Source of the DNA: Verrucomicrobiia bacterium
GTDB taxonomy: Bacteria > Verrucomicrobiota > Verrucomicrobiia > Limisphaerales > UBA9464
Direction: 5' to 3'
Length of the DNA: 64,000 nucleotides
NCBI GenBank assembly: GCA_019634635.1
Contig: JAHCBB010000005.1
Location: 173,474-237,473 of the forward strand
The translations under genes and the position numbers were made by a program. Below are positions 11,740 through 54,732 of this stretch, piece by piece. The notes under the pieces are model-generated. The model was not told the origin of the DNA. It searched no databases and saw only the letters and a list, made by a program, of their open reading frames with translations. The stretch's first letter is position 1. Each line of letters begins with the position of its first letter.

Positions 11740-11741
11740 CG

Positions 11742-14700
11742 TCAGCGGTCCCTCCCCAGTTCCTCGTAATAGCGCCGGACCAGTTCGGTGTAGCGATGCG
11801 GCACCGGATCCCGGTCCATGGGCACCAGCGCCTCGCGGGAGCTGCGCCGGGCCAGCTCCTCTGCGATCTGCTGCCGCACCTCCACCAACGGCTTGAGGAT
11901 TTCGAGTCTCACGACGGCCCAATCGGGTTTCTTGAGGTCCCGGCGCATCTCCACCCGCATCTGCCGCGCCCGCTCCCGGGCACCGGCCACGCCGGCGCGG
12001 AGTTCCGGCGATTCCACGAGCTCCTCCACCTCGCGGAGCCGGTCGGACCACGGCGCAAAGGTGCCGCCGGTCAACGGGCCGCCCCCACCGGTTCCCCCAT
12101 CGTCTCCGCCCGCCAGCAAGTCGAAGGGGCTGGACCCGCCTTGCGATCCGCGCTGACCCCGCTGGGGCGATGGGGGGCCGGGCGGATTGCCGCCCCCCTG
12201 CCCATCCGCCGGAGAGTCACCCGGACGGGGACCACCGGATTCAGGAGGCGGCGTTGGCCCCTGCGCGAGGGAAGGGGTCCCAGGCCGGGCAGGTTCGCTG
12301 GCGGGCTCACCGGGGCCACCGGCGCCGCGTGCGGATGGTTCCCCGCGCGGGTCCCCGGGCTCCCCTTCCTGTCCGGCCCCGGCCCCGGCCAGCTCACGCT
12401 CCAGCTCCCCGGTCAGCGCATCCAGCTCTCCGGCCGCGCGCCGCAAGGCCTCCGCCTCATCCCCAAGCACACTCTCCGCCGCGCGCTCCACCCCGTCGCG
12501 TAACTGGACGATGCCCTCCCGGGCCCGGGCTTCCACGCGATCCGCCTGCGCGAAGTTGCCGAGGCGCAGCAGCTCGGCAGCCATGTCGAGAATTTGGCCC
12601 GGCTCCCCGGAGGTCTCCTGCAACCGGTCGTACAACCGCTGGCTCAACTGGCCGCGCTCGGCCAGCTCCTGCTGCCACTGCTTCGCCAGGCCGGCGTCGT
12701 CCTGCTGAAACTGGCGCAGGGTCTCCTCGAGCTTCTGGGAGAGCAGGGGTTCCGCCTGCTCGGCCAGTTGCGCCACCTCGGTCGCCTCCCCGACCAGGCG
12801 GGTGGCCCGCTCGCGCTGCTGTTCCAGTTCGCGAGCCAAATCCTGGCGCTCCGGAGTCTCCGACAGAGTCCGGCGTCCGGGCTCGCGGGCCTCCCCCAAC
12901 TGGCGGGCGATGTCCTCCTGGCGTTGCGCCAGTTCGCGCGCCTCCTGACGCAGTTGCCGGACGTCTTCCGAAAACTGGCTGGCGCTTTGCCGGCGAAGGT
13001 CATCCCGCAAGGACTCGAGCTGCCGCTGGGCGCGGGTGCCGGAGGCCACCGCCTGGCGGGTCGCCCCCTCGGCCGCGGCCTCTGCGGCCCGTTGCACTTC
13101 GTCGCGGGTTTCCTCCAGACGCCGGCGCTCATCGGCCAGCCGCGACTGGTTTTCGGGGCGGTCCATGCGTTGCTGCAGTTCGTCCACATCGGCGAGCATC
13201 TCGCGCTGCTCCTCCTGGAGACGTTTCAACTGGCGTCGGGCCTCCTCGCGTTCTTCTTCGGTCCGTGCCTCCTCGAGGGCGGCCTGCAACTCCTTGAGGC
13301 GCTCATTGAGGTCCTCCTGGCGGCGGGCCAGTTCCTGGAGCCGGTTGAGGATCTGCAGTTGCGCGCGCTGCTCGGGGTTCTGCGCCGTGCGCGCCTGGCT
13401 CTGGGTCTCATAGCGATCCTCGGACTGCTTCAAATCCAGCTGGTCCACCTGACGCTGACTTGCGGATTCGCCGCCGCCTCCCCCTCGGTTGCGACCGCGC
13501 GTCACGGTGACCTCCCGGGACTGCATGCGCATCAGGGCCTGATAGGCGGTTTGTTCCGGGGTCAGGGCATTCGCCAGCAATTCGGGGGAATCCAGGGCGG
13601 CCGTCAGACGGGTCACCGCATCCTCCATGGACCGCACCACCAGCGCCCAGTCACCCTCCCGCTCCGGACCCGTGGCGTCCGCCGCCTCCTCCTGGGCCTG
13701 ATCAAGAGCCGTCTGCTGGGAATCCCGAACCACCGTGGCATCGGCGACATAGGCGTCGCGGCTGCCGGGCTCACGCTGCAGCCTCCAGGTGGCGTTGATG
13801 ATTTGCTTCTGAAGCTCCGCAAGCCGGGTTGCCGGAGTCTGGCCACCGCCCTGATCCCCGCCCTCGCCCTCCATGTTCTCACCCTCACGGAAGATTTCGT
13901 CGAACGGCCGGATCTCTCCGAACCGCAAGTCGCTTCGGGTGATTCGCACCGCTCCATCGGGGCCGAGGTCCTCGGCCCAGAGATGCCACGTCACGAGGTC
14001 GCCGGGTGACACCTGGAGATCCTCCAATCGGACCACGTGTTGGAACGAGCGCCGCTCCTTCGATGGCACCGCCGTGCCCAACTCCACGTCCACGCTGCCG
14101 CCGCCGCCCACGGCATAGGCGAGTCCGAACCGAAGGACTCCGAAGTCATCCCACACGGTGCCCTCGAACGGCATCTCCTCGAGCGCCGAGGGACGCTGAT
14201 CACCGCGCGGACGCGTCAGCTTGACCTCCGGAATTCGGTTCGGCAGGGCATCAAACACAAAGGCCACCGGCGCCTTGTTGGTTCGTCCGTCGGCATCCGT
14301 GAGCACCAATTGATAGCGACCGCTGCGCATCAGGGGCCAGGCGACCAGGGTAGCCACGGCGCGGTTCGTGCCAACCTCCAGGGAGAGGGAAGCCGCCGCA
14401 TTGGTCCGCTCCACCAATTGTGCCAAGACGACGGGCTTGTTGAGTTGCAGGGTGAGATCAACTCGCGTGCCCTCCACCGCGCTAATGCGACGGGTGTCCT
14501 CAATGCGACGAGGCTCGAGGCCGGTGTAGTCCGGGAAGTTGAGGTCGGCGTCGGCACGTTCCAGGCGCGGATGCTCAAACACGGTCACGGTGAACTCCCG
14601 AGTCTCCCGGCCGTCATGCACCACGCGGTATCGAAGATCGGTTGAGACATCCGGGATGCTGACGCCGAACACGGGATCCGAAAGACTTCGGATCAGCGGC

Positions 14701-15377
14701 AGGCGCCGCTCCACCTCGCCGGAAGTCTGGACCACGAGCTCAACCTGCCGCGGCGCCTCGCCACCAAAACGCGCCAGCACCACCAGGCTGTCCCCCTTCT
14801 CCAGCGCCACATCGCCCGGGGTGATTTCCAGCCGGCCATCGGCGAGTGCCGCATACGTCGAGCCCCGGGACGCCGCATCGCCAGGAGTCCTCAGAACCCA
14901 CAGCACGACCGCCAGCAACGCCAGACTGGCGATCTGCGCCGCCTGGGCACCGGCCACCTGCCACAGCGGAAAACAACGACGCCACCGCCCCCGGAAGCTT
15001 GCCTCCAGCGCCCCCAGAACCACCTGTTGCTGCAGGAAGTTGAGTCGGCCCGGCGCGTCCTCTTCCTGCTGAACCGCGGTGAGCAACACCCCCTTCAGCT
15101 CCGGATGCCGCCGCTCGATCAAGCCGGCGACATCATTGATGCCGGGACGCGTCCGCCGGAGGTGTCGCACCGTCCAGAAAAACGCGGCCACCGCGAGGAT
15201 CCCGAGGGCCGGCAACGCATACGGCGCTGTCCCGGGCGCCCACCGCTTCAGGGCGAGCAGGCCCAATCCGGCGAGGGCCACCCCTGCCCAGCACCCGGCC
15301 AGACCGGCACCCAGCCGGCGCCAGCGAAGCCGGCGAAGCAACGGTGCCAGACGCGCGTTGAGCAGCGGGTCAATCAT
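11742..15377 (-). CDS. 1211-aa membrane-anchored protein with a ~400-aa coiled-coil (E/R/Q/L-rich) segment and a Gly/Pro-rich low-complexity linker.
   Basis: N-terminal transmembrane helices (LGAGLAGCWAGVALAGLGLLAL, LPALGILAVAAFFW). The long heptad-like run RLKELQAALEEARTEEEREEARRQLKRLQEEQREML... is followed by PGTPSLAQGPTPPPESGGPRPGDSPADGQGGGNPPGPPSP. Operon position between the BatA-like and membrane genes. Confidence 0.55.
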   Translation of the reverse strand: MIDPLLNARLAPLLRRLRWRRLGAGLAGCWAGVALAGLGLLALKRWAPGTAPYALPALGILAVAAFFWTVRHLRRTRPGINDVAGLIERRHPELKGVLLTAVQQEEDAPGRLNFLQQQVVLGALEASFRGRWRRCFPLWQVAGAQAAQIASLALLAVVLWVLRTPGDAASRGSTYAALADGRLEITPGDVALEKGDSLVVLARFGGEAPRQVELVVQTSGEVERRLPLIRSLSDPVFGVSIPDVSTDLRYRVVHDGRETREFTVTVFEHPRLERADADLNFPDYTGLEPRRIEDTRRISAVEGTRVDLTLQLNKPVVLAQLVERTNAAASLSLEVGTNRAVATLVAWPLMRSGRYQLVLTDADGRTNKAPVAFVFDALPNRIPEVKLTRPRGDQRPSALEEMPFEGTVWDDFGVLRFGLAYAVGGGGSVDVELGTAVPSKERRSFQHVVRLEDLQVSPGDLVTWHLWAEDLGPDGAVRITRSDLRFGEIRPFDEIFREGENMEGEGGDQGGGQTPATRLAELQKQIINATWRLQREPGSRDAYVADATVVRDSQQTALDQAQEEAADATGPEREGDWALVVRSMEDAVTRLTAALDSPELLANALTPEQTAYQALMRMQSREVTVTRGRNRGGGGGESASQRQVDQLDLKQSEDRYETQSQARTAQNPEQRAQLQILNRLQELARRQEDLNERLKELQAALEEARTEEEREEARRQLKRLQEEQREMLADVDELQQRMDRPENQSRLADERRRLEETRDEVQRAAEAAAEGATRQAVASGTRAQRQLESLRDDLRRQSASQFSEDVRQLRQEARELAQRQEDIARQLGEAREPGRRTLSETPERQDLARELEQQRERATRLVGEATEVAQLAEQAEPLLSQKLEETLRQFQQDDAGLAKQWQQELAERGQLSQRLYDRLQETSGEPGQILDMAAELLRLGNFAQADRVEARAREGIVQLRDGVERAAESVLGDEAEALRRAAGELDALTGELERELAGAGAGQEGEPGDPRGEPSARGAGGPGEPASEPARPGTPSLAQGPTPPPESGGPRPGDSPADGQGGGNPPGPPSPQRGQRGSQGGSSPFDLLAGGDDGGTGGGGPLTGGTFAPWSDRLREVEELVESPELRAGVAGARERARQMRVEMRRDLKKPDWAVVRLEILKPLVEVRQQIAEELARRSSREALVPMDRDPVPHRYTELVRRYYEELGRDR

Positions 15378-15417
15378 GGGGTTGCCTGGGGGCGTTCATG
15401 ACGATGCGATTCATGGT

Positions 15418-29539: not shown

Positions 29540-30319
29540 TCACCACCAGAGGTAGTTGGGGTCCACCGGACGCGACATCCAGCTGGGGTCGTAGTTCAAG
29601 GGAAACATGAACAGGGCCACGTGGCCGTCGCCGTACATCATGTTCCATCCCCGCTTGCCACGATTGTTGTGCCAGACGCTCTTGGCCCTGGACTGGGCGT
29701 TGACGCGGCCATCGCCGGCATCCCGGGACCCGTGCCAGGGCCAGTCGCCCTGGATGATCTTGTTGACCGGGCTGCGCGCGATCTCACTCGTTTTGATCGG
29801 CTGCCCCTCCCGGCTGGTGCGCGGCGCCTTGGAATCGCCGGTGACATGTTTGACCCCGAACCAGTCGAGCGCCCACATGGGCAGGTAGCTGTTGCCCCAG
29901 GCGGCAAAGCAGTTGGGCCGGGATTCATTGGGCCAGTAGCTGTCGCCCTTGTCCGACGGGCAGTGGAAGGCCTGGACCGCCGGCACGTACCGGTTGAGGG
30001 GCCGGTTCGTCTCGCCGACGCTGTCGTGGACAATGGCACGGCCGTTGGTCCGGATCATGCCGCCGACCGTCGCCCAGTCCCCATGAACGGGATAAAGATC
30101 GGCGTTGTCATCGGCGTACATGTGGTAGCCGAGATATTGCTGCTTCTGATTGCTCACGCAGCGGATCGCCTGGGCCTTCACCTTGGACCGGGCCAGCGCG
30201 GGCAGCAGCATCCCGGCCAGGATCGCGATGATGGCGATGACCACGAGCAGTTCAATCAGCGTGAAGCCGGGGCGGCCAGGGGAGGCACCCGGGAGCGCCT
30301 GGAGGGGAGTCGTCTTCAT
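29540..30319 (-). CDS. Prepilin-type N-terminal cleavage/methylation protein (DUF1559 / H-X9-DG family, type II pseudopilin-like).
   Basis: [29 protein letters not shown] immediately after the leader. C-terminal region typical of the PVC DUF1559 expansion (HGDWATVGG ..., [19 protein letters not shown]). Confidence 0.75.
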
Positions 30320-30599
30320 GAGCCTGAGGGAATTCTCGAACGGAGATAACAGCTCCCCCGGCGTCCGGCAATCCCGATCGCCCCGCCTCGCGATCGGACG
30401 GTCAGGATTGGGGAACAGCTCCCGGGGTTGCGGGGACAGCGCCCCGACGCATCCGGTCCGCGGTTCAGTTGGCGGCGCTGCTTCAGCCGGTGCCTTGACA
30501 ATGAGATCGCGCGCGGGAAGGGGTTGGCATCACCTGCGGCCGGTCCCGCCTGAACCCGGGGGCAACTGGAGCACCGGCTGCTGGTTCACACTGCATCAC

Positions 30600-32354
30600 A
30601 TGAAAGTCCCCCTGGCCGTTCTCCTGGCATCCCTCGTTGCATCCCTGGCCCCGGCATTGGGTCACGGGTCCATGTCCCGGCCGGTGAGCCGGGTGTACCA
30701 GATCTATCTGGAAGACCCGCAAAGTCCCGACCACCCCTCCAGCCGAGCCGCCATCGCCGTGGCGGGCACGCAGGCATTCTACGACTGGCATGAGGTGAAT
30801 CGCCTGGTGCCCGACTACAACTATCGGGCGTTGATTCCCGACGGCCAGCTGGCCAGTGCGGGGCGGGCAAAATATGCCGGCCTGGACCTGCTGCGATCGG
30901 ACTGGCCCAAGACCCGGGTCCACCGCGGCGCGTATCACATGATCTTCAACGCCCATGTGCCGCACGACCCGAGCTTCTTCCAGGCCTTCATTTCCAGGCC
31001 CGGCTGGAGCCCGCTTCAGCCCCTGCGCTGGTCGGATCTTGAGCCGCTGCCCGGTGCGGAGTTCTTCCGCCGCCAGGGAAACCTCTACACCTTCGACACC
31101 GAGCTTCCGGCCCGCACCGGACACCACGTCATCTACGTGATCTGGCAGCGCATTGATCCGGCAGGCGAGGCCTTCTTCTCGATCAGCGACGTGGATTTTG
31201 GTGACGGGTCCGGTTACGGCAACCCGTACGACGGGGACACCGTCCTGCCGCCCGACTCCACCGATCACAGCGGCCACGCCGCCGTCACGGCATTCTTTCG
31301 GGTTCAGAGCGAGTGGAGCACCGGATTCAGTGGAGAAGTCACGATCACCAACACCACGCCGTATCTGTGGAATGGTTGGAGCGTGTCCTTCGATCTCAAC
31401 GGGACCCTTCAGAATCTTTGGAGCTCACGCCTCGTCTCCAGGAGCGGCAGCCGGTACACGGTCACCAACGACCCGTGGAACGCTGCGATCCAGCCGGGAC
31501 AGAGGCTGGTCTTCGGGTTCAACGCCTCCCCAGCGTATGCCCAGGTCGGAGCGCCCTACGGCTTCCTCCTGAACGGGGCGTCCGCGCTGCCGGGCACGGG
31601 CACCGGAACGGGCAGTAGTTCCGGTTCTGGAGCGGGTTCTGGAACCGGAACCGGTGGCTCGGGCGGTACCGTCGCCACTCCACCGCCGGCCGCGATCACC
31701 GTCACCAACGGCGGGGCGGCCCTCACCTTCACCGAGGACCATCGCTGGTCCACCGGCTTCACCGGGACCGTGCGGATCCGGAACCGGGGCACCACTCCCA
31801 TCAGCGCATGGACGCTCGCATTTCAGCTCAACGGTACCGTCACCGACCAGTGGAACGTGGTTCGCAAGAGCGTGTCCGGCTCCACCTATACATTCGGCAA
31901 CGCCTCATGGAACGGATCCATCCCGCCGGGCGCCACAGTGAGCTTCGGATTCAACGCCGCCGCCGCCGCCGGGGTCCGGCCTTCGTCCTTCGTGTTCAAG
32001 GGCGCGACGACCAGTTCCACCGGGTCCATTGGAAGCACGCCGACCAGCGGCGGCAAGGTCCAGGGACGTTTGGACCTCCGGGTCCCCGACAATTGGGGCA
32101 GCGGCTTTACGGGCGCGGCGACGGTGTCGCATGTCTCGGGTCCAAACCTCAACGGCTGGACCCTCTCCTTCGACTTTCCCCACCGGATCACCACGGTGTG
32201 GGACGCCGTCCTCGTCTCCAAAGTGGGCAACCGCTACACCCTCCGCAACGCGTCGTGGAACGGCATGCTCAAGGCGGGAGGCCGGGTGGCCTTTGGGTTC
32301 AACGCCGATCCCGGCGGCCGGATCACGCCGCCATCGAACGTCACGCTCAAGTAG
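30600..32354 (+). CDS. Lytic polysaccharide monooxygenase (auxiliary activity family AA10) with three C-terminal CBM2 carbohydrate-binding modules.
   Basis: Signal peptide MKVPLAVLLASLVASLAPALG is cleaved to leave His1 (HGSMSRPVSRVYQIY). A second His sits in the conserved HHVIYVIWQRIDPAGEAFFSISDVDF block (AA10 H...W...EAF[FY]...DV pattern). Three CBM2-type modules follow (W.TGF.G.V.I.N.....W.GW...F.....L...W......G..Y........I..G....FGFNA), separated by Gly/Ser/Thr linkers. Confidence 0.7.
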   Translation: MKVPLAVLLASLVASLAPALGHGSMSRPVSRVYQIYLEDPQSPDHPSSRAAIAVAGTQAFYDWHEVNRLVPDYNYRALIPDGQLASAGRAKYAGLDLLRSDWPKTRVHRGAYHMIFNAHVPHDPSFFQAFISRPGWSPLQPLRWSDLEPLPGAEFFRRQGNLYTFDTELPARTGHHVIYVIWQRIDPAGEAFFSISDVDFGDGSGYGNPYDGDTVLPPDSTDHSGHAAVTAFFRVQSEWSTGFSGEVTITNTTPYLWNGWSVSFDLNGTLQNLWSSRLVSRSGSRYTVTNDPWNAAIQPGQRLVFGFNASPAYAQVGAPYGFLLNGASALPGTGTGTGSSSGSGAGSGTGTGGSGGTVATPPPAAITVTNGGAALTFTEDHRWSTGFTGTVRIRNRGTTPISAWTLAFQLNGTVTDQWNVVRKSVSGSTYTFGNASWNGSIPPGATVSFGFNAAAAAGVRPSSFVFKGATTSSTGSIGSTPTSGGKVQGRLDLRVPDNWGSGFTGAATVSHVSGPNLNGWTLSFDFPHRITTVWDAVLVSKVGNRYTLRNASWNGMLKAGGRVAFGFNADPGGRITPPSNVTLK

Positions 32355-32372: not shown

Positions 32373-32404
32373 CGAACGGCCGCCGGGGTCACCCGGCGGC
32401 CGTT
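32373..32404. terminator. GC-rich hairpin between the convergent LPMO (+) and 159-aa (-) genes; candidate bidirectional intrinsic terminator.
   Basis: cggccgccgggg-tca-cccggcggccg followed by tttcc. It lies 19 nt after the LPMO stop and 14 nt after the stop of the minus-strand gene. Confidence 0.35.
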
Positions 32405-32417
32405 TCCCGGAGAGGGA

Positions 32418-32897
32418 TCACCGCCAGAACCGTTCGCGCTGCTCGCGGGTCAGCTGCTTGTAGAGGGCCGTGTCCCTCGCGAGGCCGTCCAGGTAGCCCA
32501 GTGCGAGCTCCCAGGACATGTTGTCCCGCTCCTTGTCGGTAATGACGTTTCGGATGTTCCGGGCGTACCAGCCAAACATGTAAACTTGGGTATGCCGCGG
32601 CACCGCCTCGTTGTTGGCCAGCAGGGCCAGCCGTTCGACCTCAAGCAGCATCAGATGAAACTTCGCCTCCATCGCGGTGTCGCCGTGGTCCCGGGTCAGC
32701 GCCTCGGACTCGATGGCGGTGAGATTGCTGGCGATGTAGCCGTCCGTGGCAAAAAGCCTCCGGTGGGATTCAATGAAGCGCGAGATGTTCTCGACCCGCC
32801 GGTTCCGCACCAGCAGGAGCGAATTTACGAGGAAAACCAGCAGTGCGACGAGCGCTGCAACCACCGTCGCCCAGTTACGAAGTTCGTCGCTGCTCAT
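32418..32897 (-). CDS. Hypothetical membrane-anchored protein (159 aa).
   Basis: N-terminal transmembrane helix WATVVAALVALLVFLVNSLLLV. No family recognised. GC3-rich ORF in the gap between the LPMO and the sulfatase. Confidence 0.4.
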   Translation of the reverse strand: MSSDELRNWATVVAALVALLVFLVNSLLLVRNRRVENISRFIESHRRLFATDGYIASNLTAIESEALTRDHGDTAMEAKFHLMLLEVERLALLANNEAVPRHTQVYMFGWYARNIRNVITDKERDNMSWELALGYLDGLARDTALYKQLTREQRERFWR

Positions 32898-36200: not shown

Positions 36201-37631
36201 TCACGCCCGAATCGAGTCCACCGGCCGGAATGCGCGGGACGCAGGGCCGAGCCGGCGTTTGGCACCCATGGCGTCGAGCATCGTGTTGTACAGGTCGAGG
36301 CCCTCCGCTCCGACGTCCAGGATCTGCCCGGTCTTGAAGCGTCCGTCGGCTCCCGTGATGGCGTGGAAGACGCCGCTCAACTCCCGCTTCGAGTCGCTGT
36401 GGCGTCCGTCGCCGGATTCGGTGGAGATGGTGATCAACGAGTTTTCGAGGAGGGTCCGGCCGTTGGCCTCGCGGGTCTCCGGGGAATCCAGCCGGGCGAG
36501 GAAGTAGGCCAGTTCCCGCATCTTCATGTGCGCATGGGCCCGCAGCGCCTCGTTGGGCTTCGCCTCATCAAATTTGTGCCACCACTCGTGGCTGCATCCG
36601 GCCGAGCCCGAGGCGTTGTGCTGCGCGGCGTCGTCGAAGTGGAACACGCTGCGCCCGTTGTAGGCATAGTCACCCTTAAGCCGGATCCGCTCGCCGGCGG
36701 CGAGGAAGGTCAGCGAGCCGATGCGGACGCGGTCCATCTGGATGGCGGTCGCGTAGAGGTCGGCCATGAGGCGCCAGCCCTCAACGAGTTCATCGAGGGT
36801 GATGTCAATGCCCTCACCCCCCGGATCGGCCTCGCCCCCGTGGATCAGTTTGGATCGGGGCGGCACCTGCGGTCCGTTCGGATCGCGAGCCTCCGCGGCC
36901 TGGGCCCGCTGCTCGAATTCCCGGATGCGGTCGAGGTGATCCGCCACGCGGGCCCTGGAGGCCGCACCAAGCGGCGAGTTGGCTCCGGTGTAGTAGCGGT
37001 ACTGTTCCATTACGGAGTCGAGCACGCTGCGCCGGAAGCGCTGGCGCTGGACATCCGGTGCCGCTCCTTCCAGTCCGGAGGAGCCAAATACCCGGTCAAA
37101 CAAATCGCGGGGCTTTTCCTGCATGCCGGCGGCGGGGGTCCCGTCGTCGTTGAAGCTCTGCACGTAGCGGCTGAGCCGGTCGTTGCGGCGGAAGAACGTG
37201 CCGGCCAGCAGCGTCGGCACCACGCCCGGTGGGAAGCCGTCCGCGTAGTGCGTCCGGCGGATCACCTGGTCAATGGAGGGGCCGCCGGCACGGGCGGTCC
37301 CGTTGGGGGGTTCGGCGGTGAACGCACCCGACGAGCCGTCATAGTGGGCATTGATGCCGGGTTCGTCGCAGCGCACCTGGTCCACACCCCGGAGCAGCAG
37401 CAGCCTGCCGGCCAGCGGCTTCAAGGGCTCCAGCACGCCATCGTAGCCTTCCGTCTGCAGCGGCGCCGGAATCCCGAGGCCGAAGAAGAGGTTGAAGGCC
37501 CGCACCGGCACGCCGCCCGCCGGCGCGGCGAGCGCCCGGCCCGGGAGCATCTCCTCCAGGAACGGCAGCCCGATGGCGATGGTGCCGGCGCCCTTGAGGA
37601 GCGTGCGGCGGCTGATGCGTGGATGTTTCAT
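36201..37631 (-). CDS. DUF1501 protein (Tat-secreted, sulfatase-like fold); partner of the PSCyt protein.
   Basis: Twin-arginine leader MKHPRISRRTLLKGAGTIAIGLPF. DUF1501 body with the C-terminal HWHK-like WWHKF region. It sits directly downstream of the DUF1549/DUF1553 gene, as is usual. Confidence 0.8.
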   Translation of the reverse strand: MKHPRISRRTLLKGAGTIAIGLPFLEEMLPGRALAAPAGGVPVRAFNLFFGLGIPAPLQTEGYDGVLEPLKPLAGRLLLLRGVDQVRCDEPGINAHYDGSSGAFTAEPPNGTARAGGPSIDQVIRRTHYADGFPPGVVPTLLAGTFFRRNDRLSRYVQSFNDDGTPAAGMQEKPRDLFDRVFGSSGLEGAAPDVQRQRFRRSVLDSVMEQYRYYTGANSPLGAASRARVADHLDRIREFEQRAQAAEARDPNGPQVPPRSKLIHGGEADPGGEGIDITLDELVEGWRLMADLYATAIQMDRVRIGSLTFLAAGERIRLKGDYAYNGRSVFHFDDAAQHNASGSAGCSHEWWHKFDEAKPNEALRAHAHMKMRELAYFLARLDSPETREANGRTLLENSLITISTESGDGRHSDSKRELSGVFHAITGADGRFKTGQILDVGAEGLDLYNTMLDAMGAKRRLGPASRAFRPVDSIRA

Positions 37632-37646
37632 CTATGGATCGCCGGT

Positions 37647-40292
37647 TCAGGGGGCTTCGGTGTCGGAGGTCAGCACCAGATCGCTCAGGACGATGGCGCG
37701 CAACAGCTCCGGGTACGTGCCGCCCGCCGCCGCGGCACGCCGGTGGATCTGCGTCACGACCGGGGCATCAGCGGCGGTGAGCGGCCGGCCGATGGCAAAC
37801 TGGATGACCTTGCGCGCCAGGTTTTCGCGGACGCGGTCGTGCGCAGCCAGAAGATCCATGAGCGCGTCGGCAGACGGGTAGGCGACGGGGCGGGCCTCGC
37901 CGGGAAAAAGCACTTCGCCGTCTTCGCGCAGCGGATTTCCGTGCTCGTCTCGCTGGTGGTGCACTCCGAGACCGTCGTATTTTTCGAGGGCGAAGGCGAG
38001 TGTTTCGAAGCGCCGATGGCAGGCGCCACAGGCGGGGTTCTGCACGCGTTGTTCGGCCGCGCCGCGCTTGGAAAGGCCGGGCCGCGCCGGCACCGGGCGG
38101 GTGTCCAGTCCGGGGGGAGGATTGTTCACGGCGCCGCGCAGGATGTCGTTCAGCACAAAAAGACCCCGGGTCACCATGGACGCTTCGTCGCCCCCCACGG
38201 TGAGCACGCTGCCCTGGGTCAGCAACCCGCCGCGTCCGGGGATTGCCGAGAGATCGTACCGGGCAAGGGCCACGCTGTCGCTTTCCGGCAGGCCGTAGAA
38301 CTTCGCCAGACGCGGCGTGGCGTAGGTCACCTGGGCATTCAACAGGTCCGCCAGGGGGCGCCGCTGTTGCCACACGACCTCCTCGAAGAATGCGAGGGTC
38401 TCGGCACGCATGTCGGCGGCCAGTTCGGGATCCCACTGTGGAAACTTCGCGGGATTGGGCCGCAGGTTGGCCAGCCGGTCGAGGTCCAGCCATTCGGTGA
38501 CGAACTGCAGTGAGCGCTTCCGGACACGCGGGTCGCCGAGCATCCGCCCGACCTGGGCCTCGACCTGGCGCCGGTCGTACAAGGCGCCGGTCCCGGCCGC
38601 GTGCATCAACTCGCGATCCGGCGGTGCTCCCCAGAGGGTGTAGCTGAGCCGCGACGCCAGTTCGAAATCCCCCACCGGCCAGGCCGTGCCATCACCGCGC
38701 TGGTTCTCCATACGATAAAGGAAGCGTGGCGACTGCAGCATCGTCTCGATCACCAGCGCCATGGCTGTGTCGAAATCGCCGTCCTGCGCCGTGACGGCGG
38801 TCGCGACGCCCAGGAAGGCACTGATCTCATGGTCCTCCAGCGGACCGCGCAGGAGCCAGTGGCCCACCCGGGCAACCGCCTGACGCAGCGCGTCGGGGGA
38901 GGTGTCCGGGTCCGGCGCAAACTCCTTGAGAAACGCCGGCACGTCCAGGCGGTCCACCACGAGCCCGGCCATCTGGGAATAAGCCTCCACGTGGCTGAGA
39001 TCCACGCCCAGGTTGTAGGCGGTGTTGTTGAAGCCGTCGGCGCGCAGATCCCGGGGCAGGATCTCAATGGCCTCCCGCCCGATCTCGACACCGACGGCGG
39101 CGCGGACGGTTTCGATGTATTCCGGCACCGTCAGCCGGCGCAGCGATGCCTGGCGGGTCTGACGGCTCAGCCGGTGCGCGGCGGGATCAATCATCTCCAC
39201 CGGCCACGCTGCGCCCCCTTCGATCCACTCGCGGAGCAGCGCCTTCTCCCGTGCCGGCAGCGGCGGGCGGTCCTCCGGCATCTCGTCCGACTCGACGAGG
39301 GTCCACAGCGCGCTCTTCGCCGCGTCTCCCGGTGCAATCACCGGCCCGCTGCTCCCCCCGGCGAAGGCGGCATGCCGTCGCGAGAGGTCCAGCCTTCCCT
39401 TGTGAATTGCCGCGTCGTGACACTCGAGACAGTACCGCGAAAGCAGCGGCGCGATCTCCGCCTCAAAGAGTCGTGCATTGGACGGCTCCAGCACGGCCGC
39501 GAGCTCGGAGGACTGAAGGGCGACTTTCGGGTCGGGACCCATCCGAAAATGCGCCTCGACCTCGTGGGGCAGCAGGTCGCGGTTGTAGAGGGCCACCAGG
39601 TGATATGTGCCGCGCCAGGGCCGGTCGCCGGACAGTTCGTTCGCGAGTGCCAGCGGATAGGACCCGTCCCAGTTGACCGTGGTGCCCTCGAGGGTTCGCT
39701 CAACGCTCAACTGGCCGTCCAGATACAGGCGCGTGCGTCCGTTTCGATCCCGGGTGAACACCACATGGGTGCGGTTGGTGGTCAGGCTGTGGTCAGGAGA
39801 ACTCGTTGAGGGAATTCCATTGTCGGTCGTCTGCGTCGTCCGCATCCGAACGTCGAACCGGGTGCCGTCCTGACCGAGCGTGAAATTCCGCACGCTGCCG
39901 CCCGATGAAATCGTGACGATCCGCGCGGGGCCATCCTGGTGGGTCGCCGCCGGCCGCACCCAGGCCTCCACGGTGAATTTGCCCGACACCCGCACGGCGT
40001 CCGAGAGGCGTGTGGCGGAACGTTCCGAACGGATCAACGTCCTGCCGGTCACCTCCAGTCCTCCTTCCGACCAGCGGACGGCATTGGTGTCGCTGATGCG
40101 CAGGTTCACCGGGGTGCCCGCACCGGAGACGTCCTTGACGAGAGCGCCCCCGGGCTCGTCGAACCGGTAGAGCGCCAGCAGACCGCTGCGGGAACGTCCG
40201 TCAGCATTGAGCGAAGGAACGAACTGGGCCGCGAGGGCCACGAGAGCCAGTGCGGTCAGCGGCCGGAGGGATGGGGGCGGTCGCCGCATCAT
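37647..40292 (-). CDS. PSCyt/PSD protein: N-terminal LamG-like domain, then planctomycete cytochrome c (CxxCH), DUF1549 and DUF1553.
   Basis: CLECHDAAIHKGRLDLS (heme-binding CxxCH) and a second CGACHRRFE. Domain order and length (881 aa) are typical of the PVC-specific family. Signal peptide MMRRPPPSLRPLTALALVALAAQ. Confidence 0.8.
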   Translation of the reverse strand: MMRRPPPSLRPLTALALVALAAQFVPSLNADGRSRSGLLALYRFDEPGGALVKDVSGAGTPVNLRISDTNAVRWSEGGLEVTGRTLIRSERSATRLSDAVRVSGKFTVEAWVRPAATHQDGPARIVTISSGGSVRNFTLGQDGTRFDVRMRTTQTTDNGIPSTSSPDHSLTTNRTHVVFTRDRNGRTRLYLDGQLSVERTLEGTTVNWDGSYPLALANELSGDRPWRGTYHLVALYNRDLLPHEVEAHFRMGPDPKVALQSSELAAVLEPSNARLFEAEIAPLLSRYCLECHDAAIHKGRLDLSRRHAAFAGGSSGPVIAPGDAAKSALWTLVESDEMPEDRPPLPAREKALLREWIEGGAAWPVEMIDPAAHRLSRQTRQASLRRLTVPEYIETVRAAVGVEIGREAIEILPRDLRADGFNNTAYNLGVDLSHVEAYSQMAGLVVDRLDVPAFLKEFAPDPDTSPDALRQAVARVGHWLLRGPLEDHEISAFLGVATAVTAQDGDFDTAMALVIETMLQSPRFLYRMENQRGDGTAWPVGDFELASRLSYTLWGAPPDRELMHAAGTGALYDRRQVEAQVGRMLGDPRVRKRSLQFVTEWLDLDRLANLRPNPAKFPQWDPELAADMRAETLAFFEEVVWQQRRPLADLLNAQVTYATPRLAKFYGLPESDSVALARYDLSAIPGRGGLLTQGSVLTVGGDEASMVTRGLFVLNDILRGAVNNPPPGLDTRPVPARPGLSKRGAAEQRVQNPACGACHRRFETLAFALEKYDGLGVHHQRDEHGNPLREDGEVLFPGEARPVAYPSADALMDLLAAHDRVRENLARKVIQFAIGRPLTAADAPVVTQIHRRAAAAGGTYPELLRAIVLSDLVLTSDTEAP

Positions 40293-40474
40293 TCTCCAAG
40301 GGACTCAGGCAGGATGGGCAGGGTGGTCCACGGGAAGTCCGACGCAACGACTCCGCGCCCTGTTCACCAACTTCACCCGCCTGCCAATTGTGGACCGCAC
40401 CGCTGCGCGAGGCGATCCATGCCCCGGGTGCCTCACCGGATCCGGCCGGCCGGCGCGTCACCGGCAGAACCGAA

Positions 40475-43400
40475 TCAATCGAGGACCGGCAGCAGACGGT
40501 AGTAGCGCCCATTCAGCGTCCCGGAATCCACATCCACATAGGCCTGCGGGGATTCGGCCAGCGTGAACTGCAGCAGCCGGGTCCACGACTTCAGGTCGTC
40601 CGCAGCCTCCAGGAGGTACCGCCGGCCCGTGTCACCGAACATGTCAATGCGGATCAAGCCGCTGACCCGGCTGGCCGTCAGGGTCGGCCCGTCGCCGGCG
40701 ACGGTGAGGGTGAATGCCGTGGTGGCATCCAGCGGTGGGACCCCGTCGTCCACCACCCGCACTGTGACCGGATGCACCCCCGCCTGATCCTGCCCGGGAG
40801 TCCAGAGCAGCCGTCCGGTGGAGGCATCAATGACCATGCCGGCGGGTGCTTCCTCCAGGCTGTACGTCAGGACGTTCGAGGGAAGGTCCGGATCCGATGC
40901 CAGTGCCTGAAGGGAAAACGCGAATCCGAAGGGAATGCTGGCGTCGGCGATCCCGCCGAGGGCCGGAGGCAGATTCACCTCACGAACCCTCACCGTGAAG
41001 GTCCGGGTGTCGGTCAGCCGGGGTGCCGATATCGCGTCGGGATTGCTGTCGGTGACGACGACCGTGATCGGGACGTTGGTGGGCCCCTGCGCTTCCGTCG
41101 GCGTCCACCGGATCGCGCCGGTCTCGGGATGGATGGTCATCCCGGCGGGCGGGTCCACGAGGCTGAAGGTCAGCGGATTGGGAGGCAGGTCGGCATCCGT
41201 GGCCGTCGCGGTGACGCTCAAGAGGGTCTCTTCGTCAATCGTCGCGTCGTCCGGCACCACCAGCACCGGGGCCTGGTTGACCTCGCGCACGGTGACGGTG
41301 AAGGACCGGACATCGCTGAGCTGGCTTTCGTTGACCGCCTCGGGACTGCTGTCGGTGACCCGCACCGTCACCGTTGCGTTGGTCGGCCCCTGGGCTTCGG
41401 TGGGCGTCCAGGTGATGACGCCGGTCTCCGGGTGGATGGTCATCCCGTCGGGCGGATCCACGAGATTGAAGGTCAGCGCGTTGGGCGGCAGGTCGGCGTC
41501 CGTGGCGGTCGCCGTGACGCTCAGCAGGGTCCCCTCGTCAATCGCCTGCGGCTCCGGCACCACCAGGACCGGGGCCTGGTTGACCTCGCGCACGGTGACG
41601 ATGAAGGACCGGACATCGCTGAGCCGGCTTTCGTTGACCGCGTCGGGGCTGCTGTCGGTGACCCGCACCGTCACCGTTGCATTGGTCGGCCCCTGGACTT
41701 CGGTGGGTGTCCAGGTGATGACGCCGGTCTCCGGGTGGATCGTCATCCCGTCGGGCGGATCCACGAGACTGAACGTCAGCGCGTTGGGCGGCAGGTCGGC
41801 GTCCGTGGCGGTCGCCGAGAGAACGAGGGACGTCCGCTCATCAATGGTCTGATTGGCCGGAACGGTGAGGACGGGGGCGGTGTTCACCTCGCGCACCGTC
41901 ACCGTGAAGGAAGCGGTGTCGCTGAGCTGCGTCTCGTTGACGGCATCGGGGTTATTGTCCGTGACGCGCACGCTGATCTGGTAGGTCTGCGGCCCCTGGG
42001 CCTCCGTGGGCGTCCAGGAAATCGCGCCGGAGGCCGGATGGATGGTCATTCCTGCCGGTGGGTCGTTGACGAGGCTGAAGGTGAGCGCGTTGGGTGGCAG
42101 GTCGGCGTCTGTGGCGGTTGCAGATACGTTGAGGGTTTCCAGTTCTGCAAGGGTCTGCGCGGCGGGGACAACCAGCCGGGGCGCCACGTTGACTTCCTGG
42201 ACCACCACCGTGAACCGCTGCCGGTCCACAGGAGTGAGCCAGTTGTCGGGCTGGGTCACCCACACCGTGATGTCCTCGAACCGCCCCGGCCCCTGCGTTT
42301 CGGACGGTGTCCAGGTCAACTCGGGAATCTCCGGCCCGACCGCGGCGCCGTCAGGTCCGTTTTCCCCGAAGCGGAACTGCAGGTTGTTGCCCCGCGCCAC
42401 CAGGGGAATGGTGAACGGCGCTCCCTCGGGAATCACCGCGTCGGCGATGGGATCAAGCGTGTCACTGAGGATCTCAAAATCGTCAACGTACCAGCCCGCG
42501 CGCGTGGTGCTGGTGGTGCTGACAAACCGGAAGGCCAGCCGGACCCGTTGCCCGGCATGCGCACCCAGCGGCAGGAGGACCCGGTTCCAGTTGGTGTCGG
42601 TGCCGCTGTACACCGGGGAGAGATCCGTCCAGTTGCTGCCGTCCGTGCTGATCTGCACCCGCCCGTTGTGCGTGGCGAACGGGGTGTTTATCCAGTGGCG
42701 GAAGCTCAACTGTGGATTCGCCGTGATCACCGGGACCACGAACTCCGGGGTCACCAGCCGCGCCTCCGCATTGTTGAAATAATCGCCGGCCAGCACCGTC
42801 CCGGCGACGCTGGCCCCCGCAAAGGGCTGTGGACCGCCGGGGGCGGTGGGTACCCCAATCTGCCAGAGGCCGCCCTGGGAGGACCAGTCGCCAAAGCCGT
42901 TCTCAAACCCGTCGGGATTGGACAGCACCATCGGTCCGGTCTCCAGTGCCGCGTCGTCCACGTACCAGCCCGGACGCACCGTGCTGGTGGTCGAGACGAA
43001 CCGGAAACCGATCTGCACGGGCTGTCCGGTGAAGGGGCGAAGGTCAATGATCCGCTGGCTCCAGCCCAGACTTTGAGACTGGACCCGTTCGGCCGGCACG
43101 TCCTGCCACGCGCCGCCGCGGGTCCGGATCTGCACCTGGCCGAAGTGCGTGTTGAAGGCGGTGTCGTGCCACTGCCAGAAGCGGAATCGTGGATGCTCGC
43201 CGGCCGGCGGCACGGTGAACTCCGGGCTCACGAGGCGCGCATCCACACTGTTGGGATAATTTCCCGCCAGAATGGTTCCGGCAACCTGCGTCCCGGAGCG
43301 TGGGGCGGGGCCACCCGTGGCCGTGGGCTCGCCCACCTGCCACACGCCGCCCTCCGCCGACCACTCGCCAAATCCGCCCTCGAAGCCGGGGACCTCGTCC

Positions 43401-44503
43401 AACGCCCATGGTCCCGTCTCCAGGGACATATCGTCCACGTACCATCCCAGGCTCACCGTGCTGGTGGTGGTGACCAGCCGGAATCCCAGCTGCACGGGCT
43501 GGCCGGCAAACGGGCGCAAATCCACGATGCGCTGCGCCCAGCGGCCCCCGGTGGTGAAGACCCGCTCGCCGACCACGTCCTGCCAGGCGCCGCCGCTGGT
43601 GCGGATCTGCAACTGCCCGTAGTGGCTCGTGAACGCGGTCTGATACCAGTACCAGTACTTGAAGCGCGGATGGTCCCCGGCGGGCGGCACGATGAATTCC
43701 GGGCTCGTCAGGCGGGCGTCGGCGCTGTTGGGATAATTCCCGGAGAGGACGGTGCCGACCACCCGCGATCCGGAATGCGCAGCGGGCCCTGCCGATGCCG
43801 TGGGTTCCCCCAGTTGCCAGACGCCATTCTCGACCGACCAGTCGCCGAGGCCGTTTTCAAAATCCTCGGGCGAGTCGAACGCCATGGGGCCGGTCTCCAG
43901 CGACACGTCGTCCACGTACCAGCCCGCCGCGACCGTGCTGGTGGTTGAAACAAACCGGAATCCGATCTGGACGTTCAGCCCCGCGAACGCCCGCAAATCC
44001 ACGATGCGCTGGCTCCACGCACCGGTCCCGCTGCGGTCGCTGATCCGTTCGTCCAGATCCTGCCAGGCCCCGCCGGCCACCCGCAGCTGGAGCCGGCCGA
44101 AATGGGAGTTGAACGCCGTGTCGTACCAGTACCAGTACCGCAGCCGCGGTTGATCGGCCGCCGCGGGCACGGTGAACGTTGGGCTGACCAGGCGCGTATC
44201 GGCCCCGTTCGGGTAGTTCCCCGCGAGGCGGGTGGCGGCGACGTTCGCACCGCTGCGCGCCGCGCCCGGACCGGTGGTTGGGGCGCCCAGTTCCCAGACG
44301 CCAGCCGTGCCGTCCGTCGTCCACTCCGCGGCGCCGCCTTCAAAACCCTCCTGCCAGAGGACCGCGGCCGACAGCGTCGAAATGCCCGCCAGCATCAATC
44401 CCAGGGTGAGGACCCGGAGCCACGGGCCCGGACGACGAAAGTCCCTGGTGTCCCCGGAGGACCGGTGGCAGGAGCCGGTGGAGGATGAGAAATGAGGCAG
44501 CAT
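40475..44503 (-). CDS. Giant secreted surface/adhesin-like protein. It has five ~150-aa beta-sandwich modules, then six tandem ~95-aa Ig-like (putative cadherin-like) repeats, then a ~75-aa C-terminal domain.
   Basis: N-terminal modules repeat the pattern GVW.LG.PT..GP....G..V.GT.L.GNYPN...ARL.SPEF.VP......RF..W.W..TAF..H.G..QIR..GGAWQD........W.QRI.DLRPF.GQ.VQ.GFR.V.TTSTV..GWYVDD. Ig-like repeats: VNQAPVLVVP....IDE.T.LSVTATATDADLPPN.LTF.LVDPP.GMTIHPETG.I.WTPTE.QGP.....TV.VTD..P. The start was set at MLPHF (track ORF extends to 44623); the leader is unusually long, so the true start is uncertain. Confidence 0.65.
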   Translation of the reverse strand: MLPHFSSSTGSCHRSSGDTRDFRRPGPWLRVLTLGLMLAGISTLSAAVLWQEGFEGGAAEWTTDGTAGVWELGAPTTGPGAARSGANVAATRLAGNYPNGADTRLVSPTFTVPAAADQPRLRYWYWYDTAFNSHFGRLQLRVAGGAWQDLDERISDRSGTGAWSQRIVDLRAFAGLNVQIGFRFVSTTSTVAAGWYVDDVSLETGPMAFDSPEDFENGLGDWSVENGVWQLGEPTASAGPAAHSGSRVVGTVLSGNYPNSADARLTSPEFIVPPAGDHPRFKYWYWYQTAFTSHYGQLQIRTSGGAWQDVVGERVFTTGGRWAQRIVDLRPFAGQPVQLGFRLVTTTSTVSLGWYVDDMSLETGPWALDEVPGFEGGFGEWSAEGGVWQVGEPTATGGPAPRSGTQVAGTILAGNYPNSVDARLVSPEFTVPPAGEHPRFRFWQWHDTAFNTHFGQVQIRTRGGAWQDVPAERVQSQSLGWSQRIIDLRPFTGQPVQIGFRFVSTTSTVRPGWYVDDAALETGPMVLSNPDGFENGFGDWSSQGGLWQIGVPTAPGGPQPFAGASVAGTVLAGDYFNNAEARLVTPEFVVPVITANPQLSFRHWINTPFATHNGRVQISTDGSNWTDLSPVYSGTDTNWNRVLLPLGAHAGQRVRLAFRFVSTTSTTRAGWYVDDFEILSDTLDPIADAVIPEGAPFTIPLVARGNNLQFRFGENGPDGAAVGPEIPELTWTPSETQGPGRFEDITVWVTQPDNWLTPVDRQRFTVVVQEVNVAPRLVVPAAQTLAELETLNVSATATDADLPPNALTFSLVNDPPAGMTIHPASGAISWTPTEAQGPQTYQISVRVTDNNPDAVNETQLSDTASFTVTVREVNTAPVLTVPANQTIDERTSLVLSATATDADLPPNALTFSLVDPPDGMTIHPETGVITWTPTEVQGPTNATVTVRVTDSSPDAVNESRLSDVRSFIVTVREVNQAPVLVVPEPQAIDEGTLLSVTATATDADLPPNALTFNLVDPPDGMTIHPETGVITWTPTEAQGPTNATVTVRVTDSSPEAVNESQLSDVRSFTVTVREVNQAPVLVVPDDATIDEETLLSVTATATDADLPPNPLTFSLVDPPAGMTIHPETGAIRWTPTEAQGPTNVPITVVVTDSNPDAISAPRLTDTRTFTVRVREVNLPPALGGIADASIPFGFAFSLQALASDPDLPSNVLTYSLEEAPAGMVIDASTGRLLWTPGQDQAGVHPVTVRVVDDGVPPLDATTAFTLTVAGDGPTLTASRVSGLIRIDMFGDTGRRYLLEAADDLKSWTRLLQFTLAESPQAYVDVDSGTLNGRYYRLLPVLD
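40756..42376. repeat. Tandem ~285-288-bp in-frame repeats (about 6 copies) inside the adhesin gene, several copies nearly identical at nucleotide level.
   Basis: For example 41330-41617 versus 41618-41905 differ at only a few positions. The repeat also shows up as repeated peptide text in the overlapping shadow ORF 40935..41852. Confidence 0.6.
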
Positions 44504-44815
44504 GTGAACGAAGACTTTCACGGGTGGCAACCTGGCCTCGCCAATCGAGGTTGAATCGGCGGGAAGGTGTCTGCTGACACTGTCAGTTCCCCGCAGGGCC
44601 ACCAAGTCATTTCCCCGGTCCATCGGAGTTTCGTGCCCACGGATCCCGGATTACCGATCGCCAGAACCCGCGCCCACCGTCGTGCGAATTCCCGGTCGCC
44701 GAAGGATTCGATTTCAGGCGTCGGAAGCTCCGGAGGCACCGGCCGGAGGGCGTGCGATGGGCGCCAGGACGCCGCACCCGGGGGGATCCGGCCACCGTTC
44801 GGGCTTCAGAAGTTC

Positions 44816-52195: not shown

Positions 52196-52560
52196 CGGAT
52201 GATTTCCGCGCGGCCGGCAGGCCCGGCCCGCGATTGCCCGGGACGCTCGAAGGGCAGCCGCCTTCGGAGTCTCGTCTCAAGGGTCCCTCCACCCGCCCGG
52301 CTGTCGTGCGCCGACCGGACGGCCCCCGAACCTGCTGCGGTGCCGCATCGGGAACCCGGACCCCGGCGGACGACGGGTGTTCTCGCGAGTTTACAAATCG
52401 CTCCGGGAACCTTATCAGCGCTCGTAGCTCCGCTTGATCGCTCGATCCCGCATCCTGAACCGCCGGTGGTCTGCCACCCGCTCCTCCCCGGGGGCAACCC
52501 CCTGATCGAGGAGCCGGACACGCGCCGGAACCATTCTCCAGTCCCGAACCTGCATCCCCC

Positions 52561-54726: not shown

Positions 54727-54732
54727 AGCGCG

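Follow-up and report, generated by a model that had tools for sequence, protein, structure and literature searches.

We analyzed a gene for a putative lytic polysaccharide monooxygenase (LPMO) of family AA10, located on the forward (+) strand of a 64,000-nt stretch of contig JAHCBB010000005.1 of a Verrucomicrobiia bacterium; this whole 64-kb stretch is referred to as the window. The predicted protein of 584 aa consists of a 21-aa signal peptide, an AA10 domain starting at His22, and three carbohydrate-binding modules of family CBM2, joined by Gly/Ser/Thr/Pro linkers. The layout of the gene is as follows, with pLDDT (predicted local distance difference test) values taken from an AlphaFold2 (AF2) model.

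30600..32354, + strand: LPMO gene, 584 codons plus a TAG stop (ATG at 30600, stop at 32352-32354).
30600..30662, + strand: signal peptide, residues 1-21 (MKVPLAVLLASLVASLAPALG), predicted cleavage before His22, from sequence reading and relatives.
30663..31205, + strand: AA10 (LPMO_10) catalytic domain, residues 22-202, from Pfam PF03067, PDB sequence matches, AF2 and Foldseek.
31206..31277, + strand: linker 1, residues 203-226, ending in D222-H-S-G-H226 (nt 31263-31277); pLDDT <50.
31278..31577, + strand: CBM2 module 1, residues 227-326; Pfam CBM_2, PDB match 1EXG with E 1.4e-13, pLDDT ~85-93.
31578..31715, + strand: linker 2, Gly/Ser/Thr/Pro-rich, residues 327-372, read from the sequence; pLDDT <50.
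31716..32003, + strand: CBM2 module 2, residues 373-468; the top-scoring Pfam CBM_2 stretch covers residues 375-469.
32004..32060, + strand: linker 3, Ser/Thr/Gly, residues 469-487, from sequence reading and AF2.
32061..32351, + strand: CBM2 module 3, C-terminal, residues 488-584; 1EXG with E 1.1e-15, 2RTT with E 3e-14.

The + strand open reading frame (ORF) is open from 30150 to 32354. Within it, the ATG at 30600 is the biologically sensible start and was taken as such, because the residues added by in-frame starts further 5′ are not conserved in homologues (P0002-P0009 compared). The gene has the same GC content as the remaining window, the encoded protein contains no Cys and four Met, and an exact-sequence look-up of the protein matched no record. 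As read from the sequence, the leader MKVPLAVLLASLVASLAPALG is followed by HGSMSRP and has a Lys n-region, a hydrophobic core, Ala at −3 and Gly at −1, so that by its form it would be a Sec-type signal peptide with predicted cleavage between Gly21 and His22. Among 98 homologues with an aligned AA10 domain, 92 carry a His after a hydrophobic leader, with G, A or S at −1 in nearly all of them; relatives have a like leader and then HGS, and residue 1 of the mature LPMO chains in five PDB structures aligned to residue 22. The initial annotation of this DNA, made from the sequence alone, had placed the catalytic His1 directly after ALG, and this position is thereby supported. The public gene calls of several orthologues (P0001, P0005, P0059 and P0101 among them) begin at the Met after HGS (MSRPVS... 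or MERPIS...), a late start that removes both the signal peptide and the catalytic His1; in L083 (9929-10030), the DNA further upstream encodes ...LAPALGHGSM.

The AA10 assignment is carried by sequence profiles, solved structures and a predicted model. Pfam LPMO_10 (PF03067) matched residues 22-198 over profile positions 1-183 of 183, with 137.1 bits against a cut-off of 23 and an E value of 1.4e-39. A PDB sequence search returned CbpD (8C5N/7SQX, E 5e-46), Tma12 (6IF7, E 1.7e-45), ScLPMO10D (7ZJB, E 3.5e-43) and CjLPMO10A (5FJQ, E 2.7e-30); the two enzymes against which the initial annotation had proposed to align the protein, cellulose-active ScLPMO10C (4OY7, E 1.6e-20) and CBP21 (2BEM, E 7e-8), were also matched, both more weakly than these four. 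An AF2 model of the mature protein, for which a 42-sequence alignment served as input, had a mean pLDDT of 84.9 and showed four well-folded domains separated by disordered linkers, with a pLDDT of ~90-98 in the AA10 domain; the predicted template modelling (TM) score of 0.45 means that the packing between domains is not confident. When the modelled AA10 domain was compared with the PDB by Foldseek, the best match was ScLPMO10D (7zjb; target TM 0.93, root mean square deviation 1.5 Å, 43% identity), followed by Tma12 (0.91), CbpD (0.91), CjLPMO10A (0.90) and ScLPMO10C (0.83). The first domain is thus predicted to adopt the AA10 immunoglobulin-like beta-sandwich with an L2 subdomain, matching four solved AA10s. 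Together with the three Pfam CBM_2 stretches described below, these results uphold the initial description of an AA10 LPMO with three CBM2 modules, the profile matches going far beyond what chance would give, and the protein is an intact AA10 LPMO, that is, a new sequence of a known enzyme family which belongs to a large and biochemically uncharacterised clade of the Planctomycetes-Verrucomicrobia-Chlamydiae (PVC) bacteria.

Four elements of the AA10 domain form the predicted copper site and its surroundings.

30663..30665, + strand: His22 (mature His1), N-terminal ligand of the predicted copper histidine brace, from alignment.
30780..30800, + strand: L2 motif Y61-D-W-H-E-V-N67, with His64 at the 'Gln' position and Asn67 as the gating partner of Glu190.
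30954..30965, + strand: 'TAxH' motif, here H119-V-P-H122, with His122 as second copper ligand and His119 at the 'Thr' position.
31143..31178, + strand: W182-Q-R184-I-D-P-A-G-E190-A-F192-F193, the Arg/Glu/Phe (REF) second sphere with the axial Phe192.

The published copper brace consists of His1 and His104 in CbpD, and of His34 and His134 (precursor numbering) in ScLPMO10D (PMC10067821). In the HMMER alignment, S101-A-P-H104 of CbpD lay over H119-V-P-H122, and because His122 (mature His101, within FNAHVPHDPSFF) aligned to both CbpD His104 and ScLPMO10D His134, it is the predicted second copper ligand. The second brace His had originally been sought in 'HHVIYVIWQ...', an assignment which is corrected here; the alignments indicate that His176, in GHHVIY, belongs to the conserved core and is no ligand. 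Columns that are invariant in the 42-sequence alignment include, in mature numbering, H1, H101, H155, W161, Q162, R163, E169 and F171, and the same pattern was found in the 98-sequence AA10 alignment, except that H155 is changed in one distant sequence.

This invariance bears on the idea that the protein might be a catalytically dead, binding-only 'CBM33-like' lectin without disulfides and with altered second-shell residues. Such a reading could draw on the complete lack of Cys, compared with three disulfides in CbpD, and on an unusual pair of His residues near the brace (His64/His119, see below). Nevertheless, H1, H101, R163, E169, F171 and W161 are invariant across the 98 homologues, the Cys-free state is common to the whole PVC clade, including members fused to glycoside hydrolases (GHs), and the AF2 model is confident without disulfides, which makes a dead enzyme highly improbable.

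The second sphere of the copper site carries Arg184, Glu190 and Phe192. Forsberg et al. 2025 (PMC12703677) assign REF to strict C1 oxidisers and His-Gln-Tyr to C1/C4 enzymes, and Votvik et al. 2023 (PMC10067821) found matching Arg and Glu in the chitin-active ScLPMO10D; the REF second sphere is common to the chitin-active subclade A2 and the cellulose-active subclade A1. The Phe found in place of Tyr, initially taken as a hint at a chitin-type site, is therefore non-diagnostic, since strict C1 cellulose-active AA10s also have Arg-Glu-Phe, and it excludes the C1/C4 'HQY' subclade only. Accordingly, subclade B (C1/C4, ScLPMO10B-like) was rejected, with Arg, Glu and Phe standing in place of His-Gln-Tyr. 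By the L2 and gating motif definitions of PMC9344471, the L2 motif YDWHEVN is close to YDWNGVN of CbpD and YEWNEVN of Tma12, and unlike the CBP21-type Y(W)EPQSVE. The specificity pair is Gln/Thr in CBP21-type enzymes, Asn/Thr in ScLPMO10D, Asn/Ser in CbpD and Phe/Trp in cellulose-active AA10s (PMC9344471, PMC10067821), and it is His64/His119 here. Across the 98 homologues, the pair was His/Trp in 28, Asn/Thr in 24, His/Pro in 13 and His/His in nine. As a discriminator between GH18- and GH9-fused relatives the pair failed, with His/Pro present in both groups.

Turning to the binding modules, Pfam CBM_2 (PF00553) matched three stretches with a total of 211.7 bits against a cut-off of 24 and a combined E value of 1.7e-63. 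For each module the best PDB match was the CBM2a of Cellulomonas fimi Cex (1EXG, 1e-13 to 1e-15), followed by the CBM2 of Streptomyces chitinase ChiC (2RTT) and then B. thuringiensis ChiA74; module 2, for instance, matched 1EXG with E 5.2e-15 and the ChiC CBM2 2RTT with E 1.8e-13, with all three Trp kept. Superposed on Cex CBM2a, the modelled CBM2 domains gave target TM values of 0.82-0.84 in Foldseek. In the PDB alignments all three modules have a Trp aligned to each of Cex W17, W54 and W72, the three surface Trp of CBM2a. Xylan-binding CBM2b modules lack one of the three surface Trp. The initial annotation had described the modules as binding cellulose, chitin or xylan; the cellulose or chitin part of this description agrees with the CBM2a-type Trp, while xylan is unlikely, and a CBM2b assignment was rejected because all three Trp are kept in every module. 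The modules are thus predicted to be CBM2a-type platforms for crystalline cellulose or chitin.

The MMH copper motif is exclusive to CBM2s of the cellulose-active subclade A1, about 40% of the A1 members with a CBM2 having it (PMC12703677). A copper-binding, MMH-type CBM2 was rejected here on finding no MMH motif and just the four Met in the whole protein. A disulfide between Cys near both module ends is typical of CBM2, although not strictly defining. The typical disulfide is absent from the Cys-free modules of this protein, and one Cys was found in 2 of 48 modules of its PVC relatives; similarly, the AA10 domain has 0-1 Cys in the PVC clade versus four in actinobacterial relatives. Pairwise identity among the three modules is 34-49%, and their positional orthology (1-2-3) is kept in relatives (L001, L004, P0008, L011/P0013, P0010 and L009), so by these alignments the triple arrangement would be old and no recent tandem duplication.

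To place the protein among its relatives, one genome per GTDB species was scanned. The scan yielded 142 stretches encoding relatives, nearly all from Verrucomicrobiota or Phycisphaerales, of which the best 80 loci were kept. These loci belong to Verrucomicrobiales, Opitutia/Puniceicoccaceae, Chthoniobacterales/Terrimicrobiaceae, Roseibacillus, Akkermansiaceae, the cultured Cerasicoccus maritimus, and Phycisphaerales and other Planctomycetota. A protein database search likewise returned full-length homologues of matching architecture with 46-96% identity, together with numerous AA10-CBM2 proteins; the small number of named homologues belong to Verrucomicrobiota, Terrimicrobiaceae or Phycisphaerales. 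The relatives stem from Verrucomicrobiota that live freely in fresh water, the sea and soil. LPMOs had been noted at the outset as sparse in Planctomycetes and Verrucomicrobia; this statement applies to the literature and not to the genomes, as literature searches found no characterised verrucomicrobial LPMO and a 2024 survey of Planctomycetota states that no LPMO from this phylum has been analysed, whereas the scan gave 142 relatives.

Parsing of the ORFs in the 80 loci showed AA10-CBM2x3 alone in seven, AA10-CBM2(2-3)-GH9 in 18 (seven of them with a Calx-beta domain), AA10-CBM2(1-2)-GH18 in 11, and AA10-CBM2(3-4)-GH18-GH9 in one, a 1600-aa C. maritimus protein; the rest had a single-CBM2 AA10 or were cut off by a contig end. 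Counted across these classes, AA10-CBM2x3 is present in 12 of the 80 best loci, in five of which a glycoside hydrolase is appended. Three CBM2 modules on one LPMO, which the initial annotation called unusual, are indeed so among characterised LPMOs, but the layout recurs in Verrucomicrobiota. A GH18 chitinase is fused to AA10-CBM2 in 12 of the 80 best loci and also in many metagenomic proteins, and the GH9 domain of the fusions is closely related to the T. fusca E4/Cel9A cellulase (E 1e-165). The C. maritimus protein (L021, 10001-14803, strain NBRC 105382) combines AA10, 3-4 CBM2, a GH18 chitinase and an E4-type GH9, and would thus be tri-catalytic. In neighbour-joining trees of the AA10 domain, whose topology carries no support values, the subgroup of our protein grouped with other CBM2x3 proteins; the next nearest were a marine single-CBM2 group and an Opitutia CBM2x3-GH9 group, then the C. 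maritimus protein, and then the GH18-fused group.

All of this indicates that the protein is very probably a functional AA10 LPMO with CBM2a anchors whose substrate is a crystalline beta-1,4 polysaccharide. With respect to the particular polysaccharide, we lean slightly towards chitin as the most likely substrate. Chitin is favoured because the nearest neighbours with demonstrated oxidative activity (CbpD, ScLPMO10D and CjLPMO10A) are C1 chitin-active, because the specificity pair is polar (His64/His119) and not Phe/Trp, because the L2 motif is CbpD-like, because GH18 fusions occur in the family, and because there is no MMH-type CBM2. Set against subclade A1, the protein has REF, lacks the Phe/Trp pair and MMH, and scores clearly below the A2-like enzymes; set against the A2 and CbpD-like group, it has REF, an L2 motif YDWHEVN where that group has Y-[DE]-W-N-x-V-N, and a polar pair, albeit His/His instead of Asn/Thr or Asn/Ser, and finds there its best neighbours in sequence and structure.

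Several observations weigh against our preferred reading. No chitinase, cellulase or N-acetylglucosamine-utilisation gene was found in the window, and no characterised precedent was found for the His/His pair. C1 cellulose-active AA10s are likewise marked by an Arg-Glu-Phe second sphere, and CBM2a binds cellulose and chitin alike. In 18 of the 80 related loci AA10-CBM2 is fused to an E4-cellulase-like GH9 alone; three such AA10-CBM2x3-GH9 proteins (L006, L009 and L010), with an AA10 identity of 66-69%, are among the nearest outside the subgroup of our protein. The C. maritimus protein carries both GH18 and GH9 behind one AA10, which suggests that the clade may serve both substrates. Furthermore, to our knowledge no enzyme of the PVC AA10 clade has been assayed.

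A rival reading, which differs in the substrate only, is a cellulose-active C1 LPMO, or a dual cellulose/chitin one, that would work with GH9-type cellulases encoded elsewhere in the genome and whose three CBM2a modules would target crystalline cellulose, the LPMO mechanism being unchanged. In addition to the REF motif at Arg184/Glu190/Phe192 and the GH9-fused near relatives with their match to the T. fusca E4 cellulase, this reading has in its favour that the best match of the CBM2 modules is the cellulose-binding Cex CBM2a, and that sister subgroups have a His/Trp pair, half-way to the cellulose-type Phe/Trp. Against this, the closest oxidatively active neighbours are chitin-active, with ScLPMO10D and CbpD also having Arg and Glu at the second-sphere positions, the pair is the polar His/His and not Phe/Trp, an MMH-type CBM2 is lacking, and GH18 fusions are about as frequent in the family as GH9 fusions. 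Cellulose as a substrate in one of these two forms is therefore a substantial possibility that falls somewhat short of even; taken singly, dual chitin and cellulose activity is rather unlikely, and activity on cellulose only a little less likely still. Chitin accordingly stays our preferred substrate.

Domain identity, catalytic residues, fold, architecture and distribution are direct results of the analysis, while copper binding, C1 regioselectivity, the substrate and an extracellular (not periplasmic) location are inferred, and the mode of action can be proposed as follows. After Sec export, signal peptidase would expose His22 as the N-terminus, whose amino group and imidazole would, together with His122, hold one copper ion. 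Phe192 would lie beneath the copper, with Arg184 and Glu190 in the second sphere and Asn67 gating together with Glu190. The copper, once reduced to Cu(I), would use H2O2 or O2 to hydroxylate C1 of the beta-1,4 glycosidic bond, and this attack on the flat surface of a crystalline polysaccharide would nick the chain and make the crystal accessible to hydrolases. Meanwhile, the three CBM2a-type modules on flexible linkers, each with three coplanar Trp, would hold the enzyme at the crystal surface, an anchoring which would also shield the copper site from self-inactivation. The AA10 mechanism, which is well established for the family in general, and the role of CBMs in giving affinity and protection against self-inactivation have been reviewed (PMC10154629).

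A further feature is found in linker 1, where the motif DH[SG][GS]H is conserved in P0001-P0006, L001-L003 and L005. More generally, 29 of 171 family proteins have His-rich motifs (such as DHDHDHG, EHDHEHP or GHNHG) after the AA10 domain, and about 28 of the 171 have Cys-rich ones (such as GGCGTGCTC or GPCGxxxxECxC), one protein (L008) having both kinds; these motifs sit ~20-25 residues past the catalytic domain. Recent work has described a copper-binding CBM2 that protects ScLPMO10C, and a domain-borne His pair (DUF-B) of EcLPMO that is predicted to cap its copper. By analogy, the DHSGH or GGCGTGCTC-type motif of the linker may be a second copper site whose role would be to cap or buffer the copper of the active centre, and which the His64/His119 pair could join. 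A broader proposal, that the PVC AA10s are a distinct disulfide-free subclade forming a dual chitin/cellulose 'crystal-opening' module with such a putative linker copper site, is speculative and, as a whole, unlikely. If true, the dual-substrate module would explain the fusions of AA10-CBM2 to GH18, GH9 or both, and the linker copper site would be a new answer to a problem that ScLPMO10C-like enzymes handle with MMH CBM2s and EcLPMO with its DUF-B His pair.

We also inspected the genomic surroundings. The LPMO gene is flanked on one side by genes for TsaD, an S41 peptidase and a divergent prepilin-type N-methyl protein, and on the other by a convergent 159-aa gene and genes for a sulfatase, an FG-GAP protein, a DUF1552 protein and a PSD/PSCyt protein. 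Glycoside hydrolases encoded nearby, which the initial annotation had recommended looking for, were not found by Pfam scans of ~30 ORFs of the window, and tblastn gave no match to GH18 or GH9 domains in it. When 12 neighbours from the window were searched by tblastn against the 80 related loci, no synteny was found. A matching neighbourhood is present on a 30.6-kb ENA contig (L083) of a strain that is 96-98% identical, and the 84%-identical orthologue has a different gene context. The LPMO gene is thus an orphan outside any operon, and the adjoining prepilin-type gene is probably unrelated, because the context is shared only by the 96%-identical strain contig.

The orphan status without CAZyme (carbohydrate-active enzyme) neighbours, in a context that differs even in the 84%-identical orthologue, could be taken to mean that the protein serves mainly at the cell surface or in colonisation, or remodels cell walls, in the manner of CbpD/GbpA or of the wall-anchored ScLPMO10D type, instead of degrading biomass; CbpD, a virulence factor, and ScLPMO10D, which is anchored to the cell wall, are indeed among the closest solved relatives. 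However, orphan status is normal, as about 80% of planctomycetal AA10 genes in the 2024 survey lie outside CAZyme clusters. The protein has no sortase, LAETG, GbpA2 or CBM73 modules, the intact planar Trp platforms on its three CBM2a modules point to a crystalline polysaccharide, and its relatives, which come from free-living bacteria of freshwater, sea and soil, carry fused catalytic domains of chitinases and cellulases. A colonisation or wall-remodelling role is therefore very unlikely, and degradation of a crystalline polysaccharide is the function that we retain.

Downstream of the LPMO gene, one further element was recognized by eye and then by RNA folding.

32375..32404, no strand assigned: GC-rich hairpin with a perfect 13-bp stem and a GTCA loop.

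It starts 20 nt past the LPMO stop, between the convergent LPMO and 159-aa genes. Its RNA fold has −38.9 kcal/mol (z −3.5), and none of 200 shuffles folded as well, which makes it likely, as judged from the predicted fold, to be a bidirectional terminator without a T-run. Consensus promoter and terminator scans returned nothing, missing the hairpin, which has no T-run. Neither Pfam nor PADLOC gave a match for the convergent 159-aa ORF (32418-32897, − strand), which lies next to the LPMO gene in the 96%-identical strain contig too, but not beside the 84%-identical orthologue.

Elsewhere in the window, a PSD/PSCyt protein (36201-40304, − strand) with DUF1585/1587/1588/1592/1595, planctomycete cytochrome c and Laminin_G_3 domains is paired with the DUF1552 protein, a pair typical of Planctomycetes and Verrucomicrobia. 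These genes, the Verrucomicrobiota names on the closest LPMO homologues and the names beginning with 'Ver...' on the closest TsaD homologues support the origin of the DNA from a PVC genome, as initially proposed. A 1391-aa protein (40475-44650, − strand) with He_PIG, Rib-long, Big_9, cadherin-like and MAM-like repeats has a domain content that suggests a large surface adhesin. At 52459-60354 (+ strand), a 755-aa ORF without a Pfam match is followed by a gene whose 1875-aa product carries an AAA domain, DUF7902 and DUF3686 ('ATPase involved in DNA repair', E 7.5e-155). By their sequences the two genes could form an uncharacterised defence or repair module; PADLOC gave a marginal mad8 match only (E 1.4e-4) for the large DUF3686/AAA gene and its neighbours. 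Finally, the region 9379-15401 has a GC content of ~0.70 and long overlapping ORFs on both strands (946, 1218 and 502 aa), with one weak Pfam match only, to GATase1_like.

As an annotation, the protein is an expected family member. Bacterial LPMO biochemistry, however, comes almost wholly from Actinobacteria, Proteobacteria and Firmicutes, and this protein is a clean, full-length, Cys-free representative of a clade with members in at least 142 PVC species genomes, whose expression should be easy, because there are no disulfides to form. Its characterisation would bear on whether the substrate of the clade is chitin, cellulose or both, and thereby on the role of Verrucomicrobia in freshwater, marine and soil polysaccharide turnover, as well as on whether multiple CBM2s alter LPMO stability or processivity and whether the His/Cys motifs of the linkers bind copper.

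Compared with known enzymes, the protein is closest in structure to ScLPMO10D of Streptomyces coelicolor (subclade A2, C1 chitin-active), with which it shares the Arg/Glu second sphere and a polar pair beside the brace, Phe192 occupying the axial position. The two differ in that ScLPMO10D has an Asn/Thr pair, a LAETG cell-wall anchor and no CBM, whereas our protein has His/His and three CBM2; in addition, the actinobacterial homologues of ScLPMO10D (P0107-P0110) have four Cys in AA10 and our protein none. The top sequence matches, CbpD of Pseudomonas aeruginosa and Tma12 of the fern Tectaria, share with it the L2 motif YDW[N/H]xVN, a swapped gating pair with the Asn on L2 and the Glu before the axial Phe, and the Arg under the brace. 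Both differ from it by a one-residue insertion in its R...E loop (RIDPAGE versus RSDSPE). CbpD is, moreover, a virulence factor with the layout AA10-GbpA2-CBM73 and three disulfides, in contrast to CBM2x3 without Cys, and Tma12 is a single-domain plant protein.

ScLPMO10C (CelS2; subclade A1, C1 cellulose-active) resembles the protein in combining AA10, a flexible linker and CBM2a, and in its Arg-Glu-Phe second sphere. It is more distant in both sequence and fold (E 1.6e-20, target TM 0.83), and its one CBM2 has an MMH copper motif and a disulfide, as opposed to three CBM2 without MMH or Cys; the specificity pair, His/His in our protein, is as a rule Phe/Trp in cellulose-active AA10s. Lastly, Jd1381 (JdLPMO10A) of Jonesia denitrificans, an AA10-CBM5-GH18 protein, is the only characterised bicatalytic LPMO-chitinase (PMC10154629). 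Its analogues here are the AA10-CBM2(n)-GH18 relatives, but it has CBM5 instead of CBM2 and an AA10 of another clade, and our protein differs from it in having no hydrolase domain.

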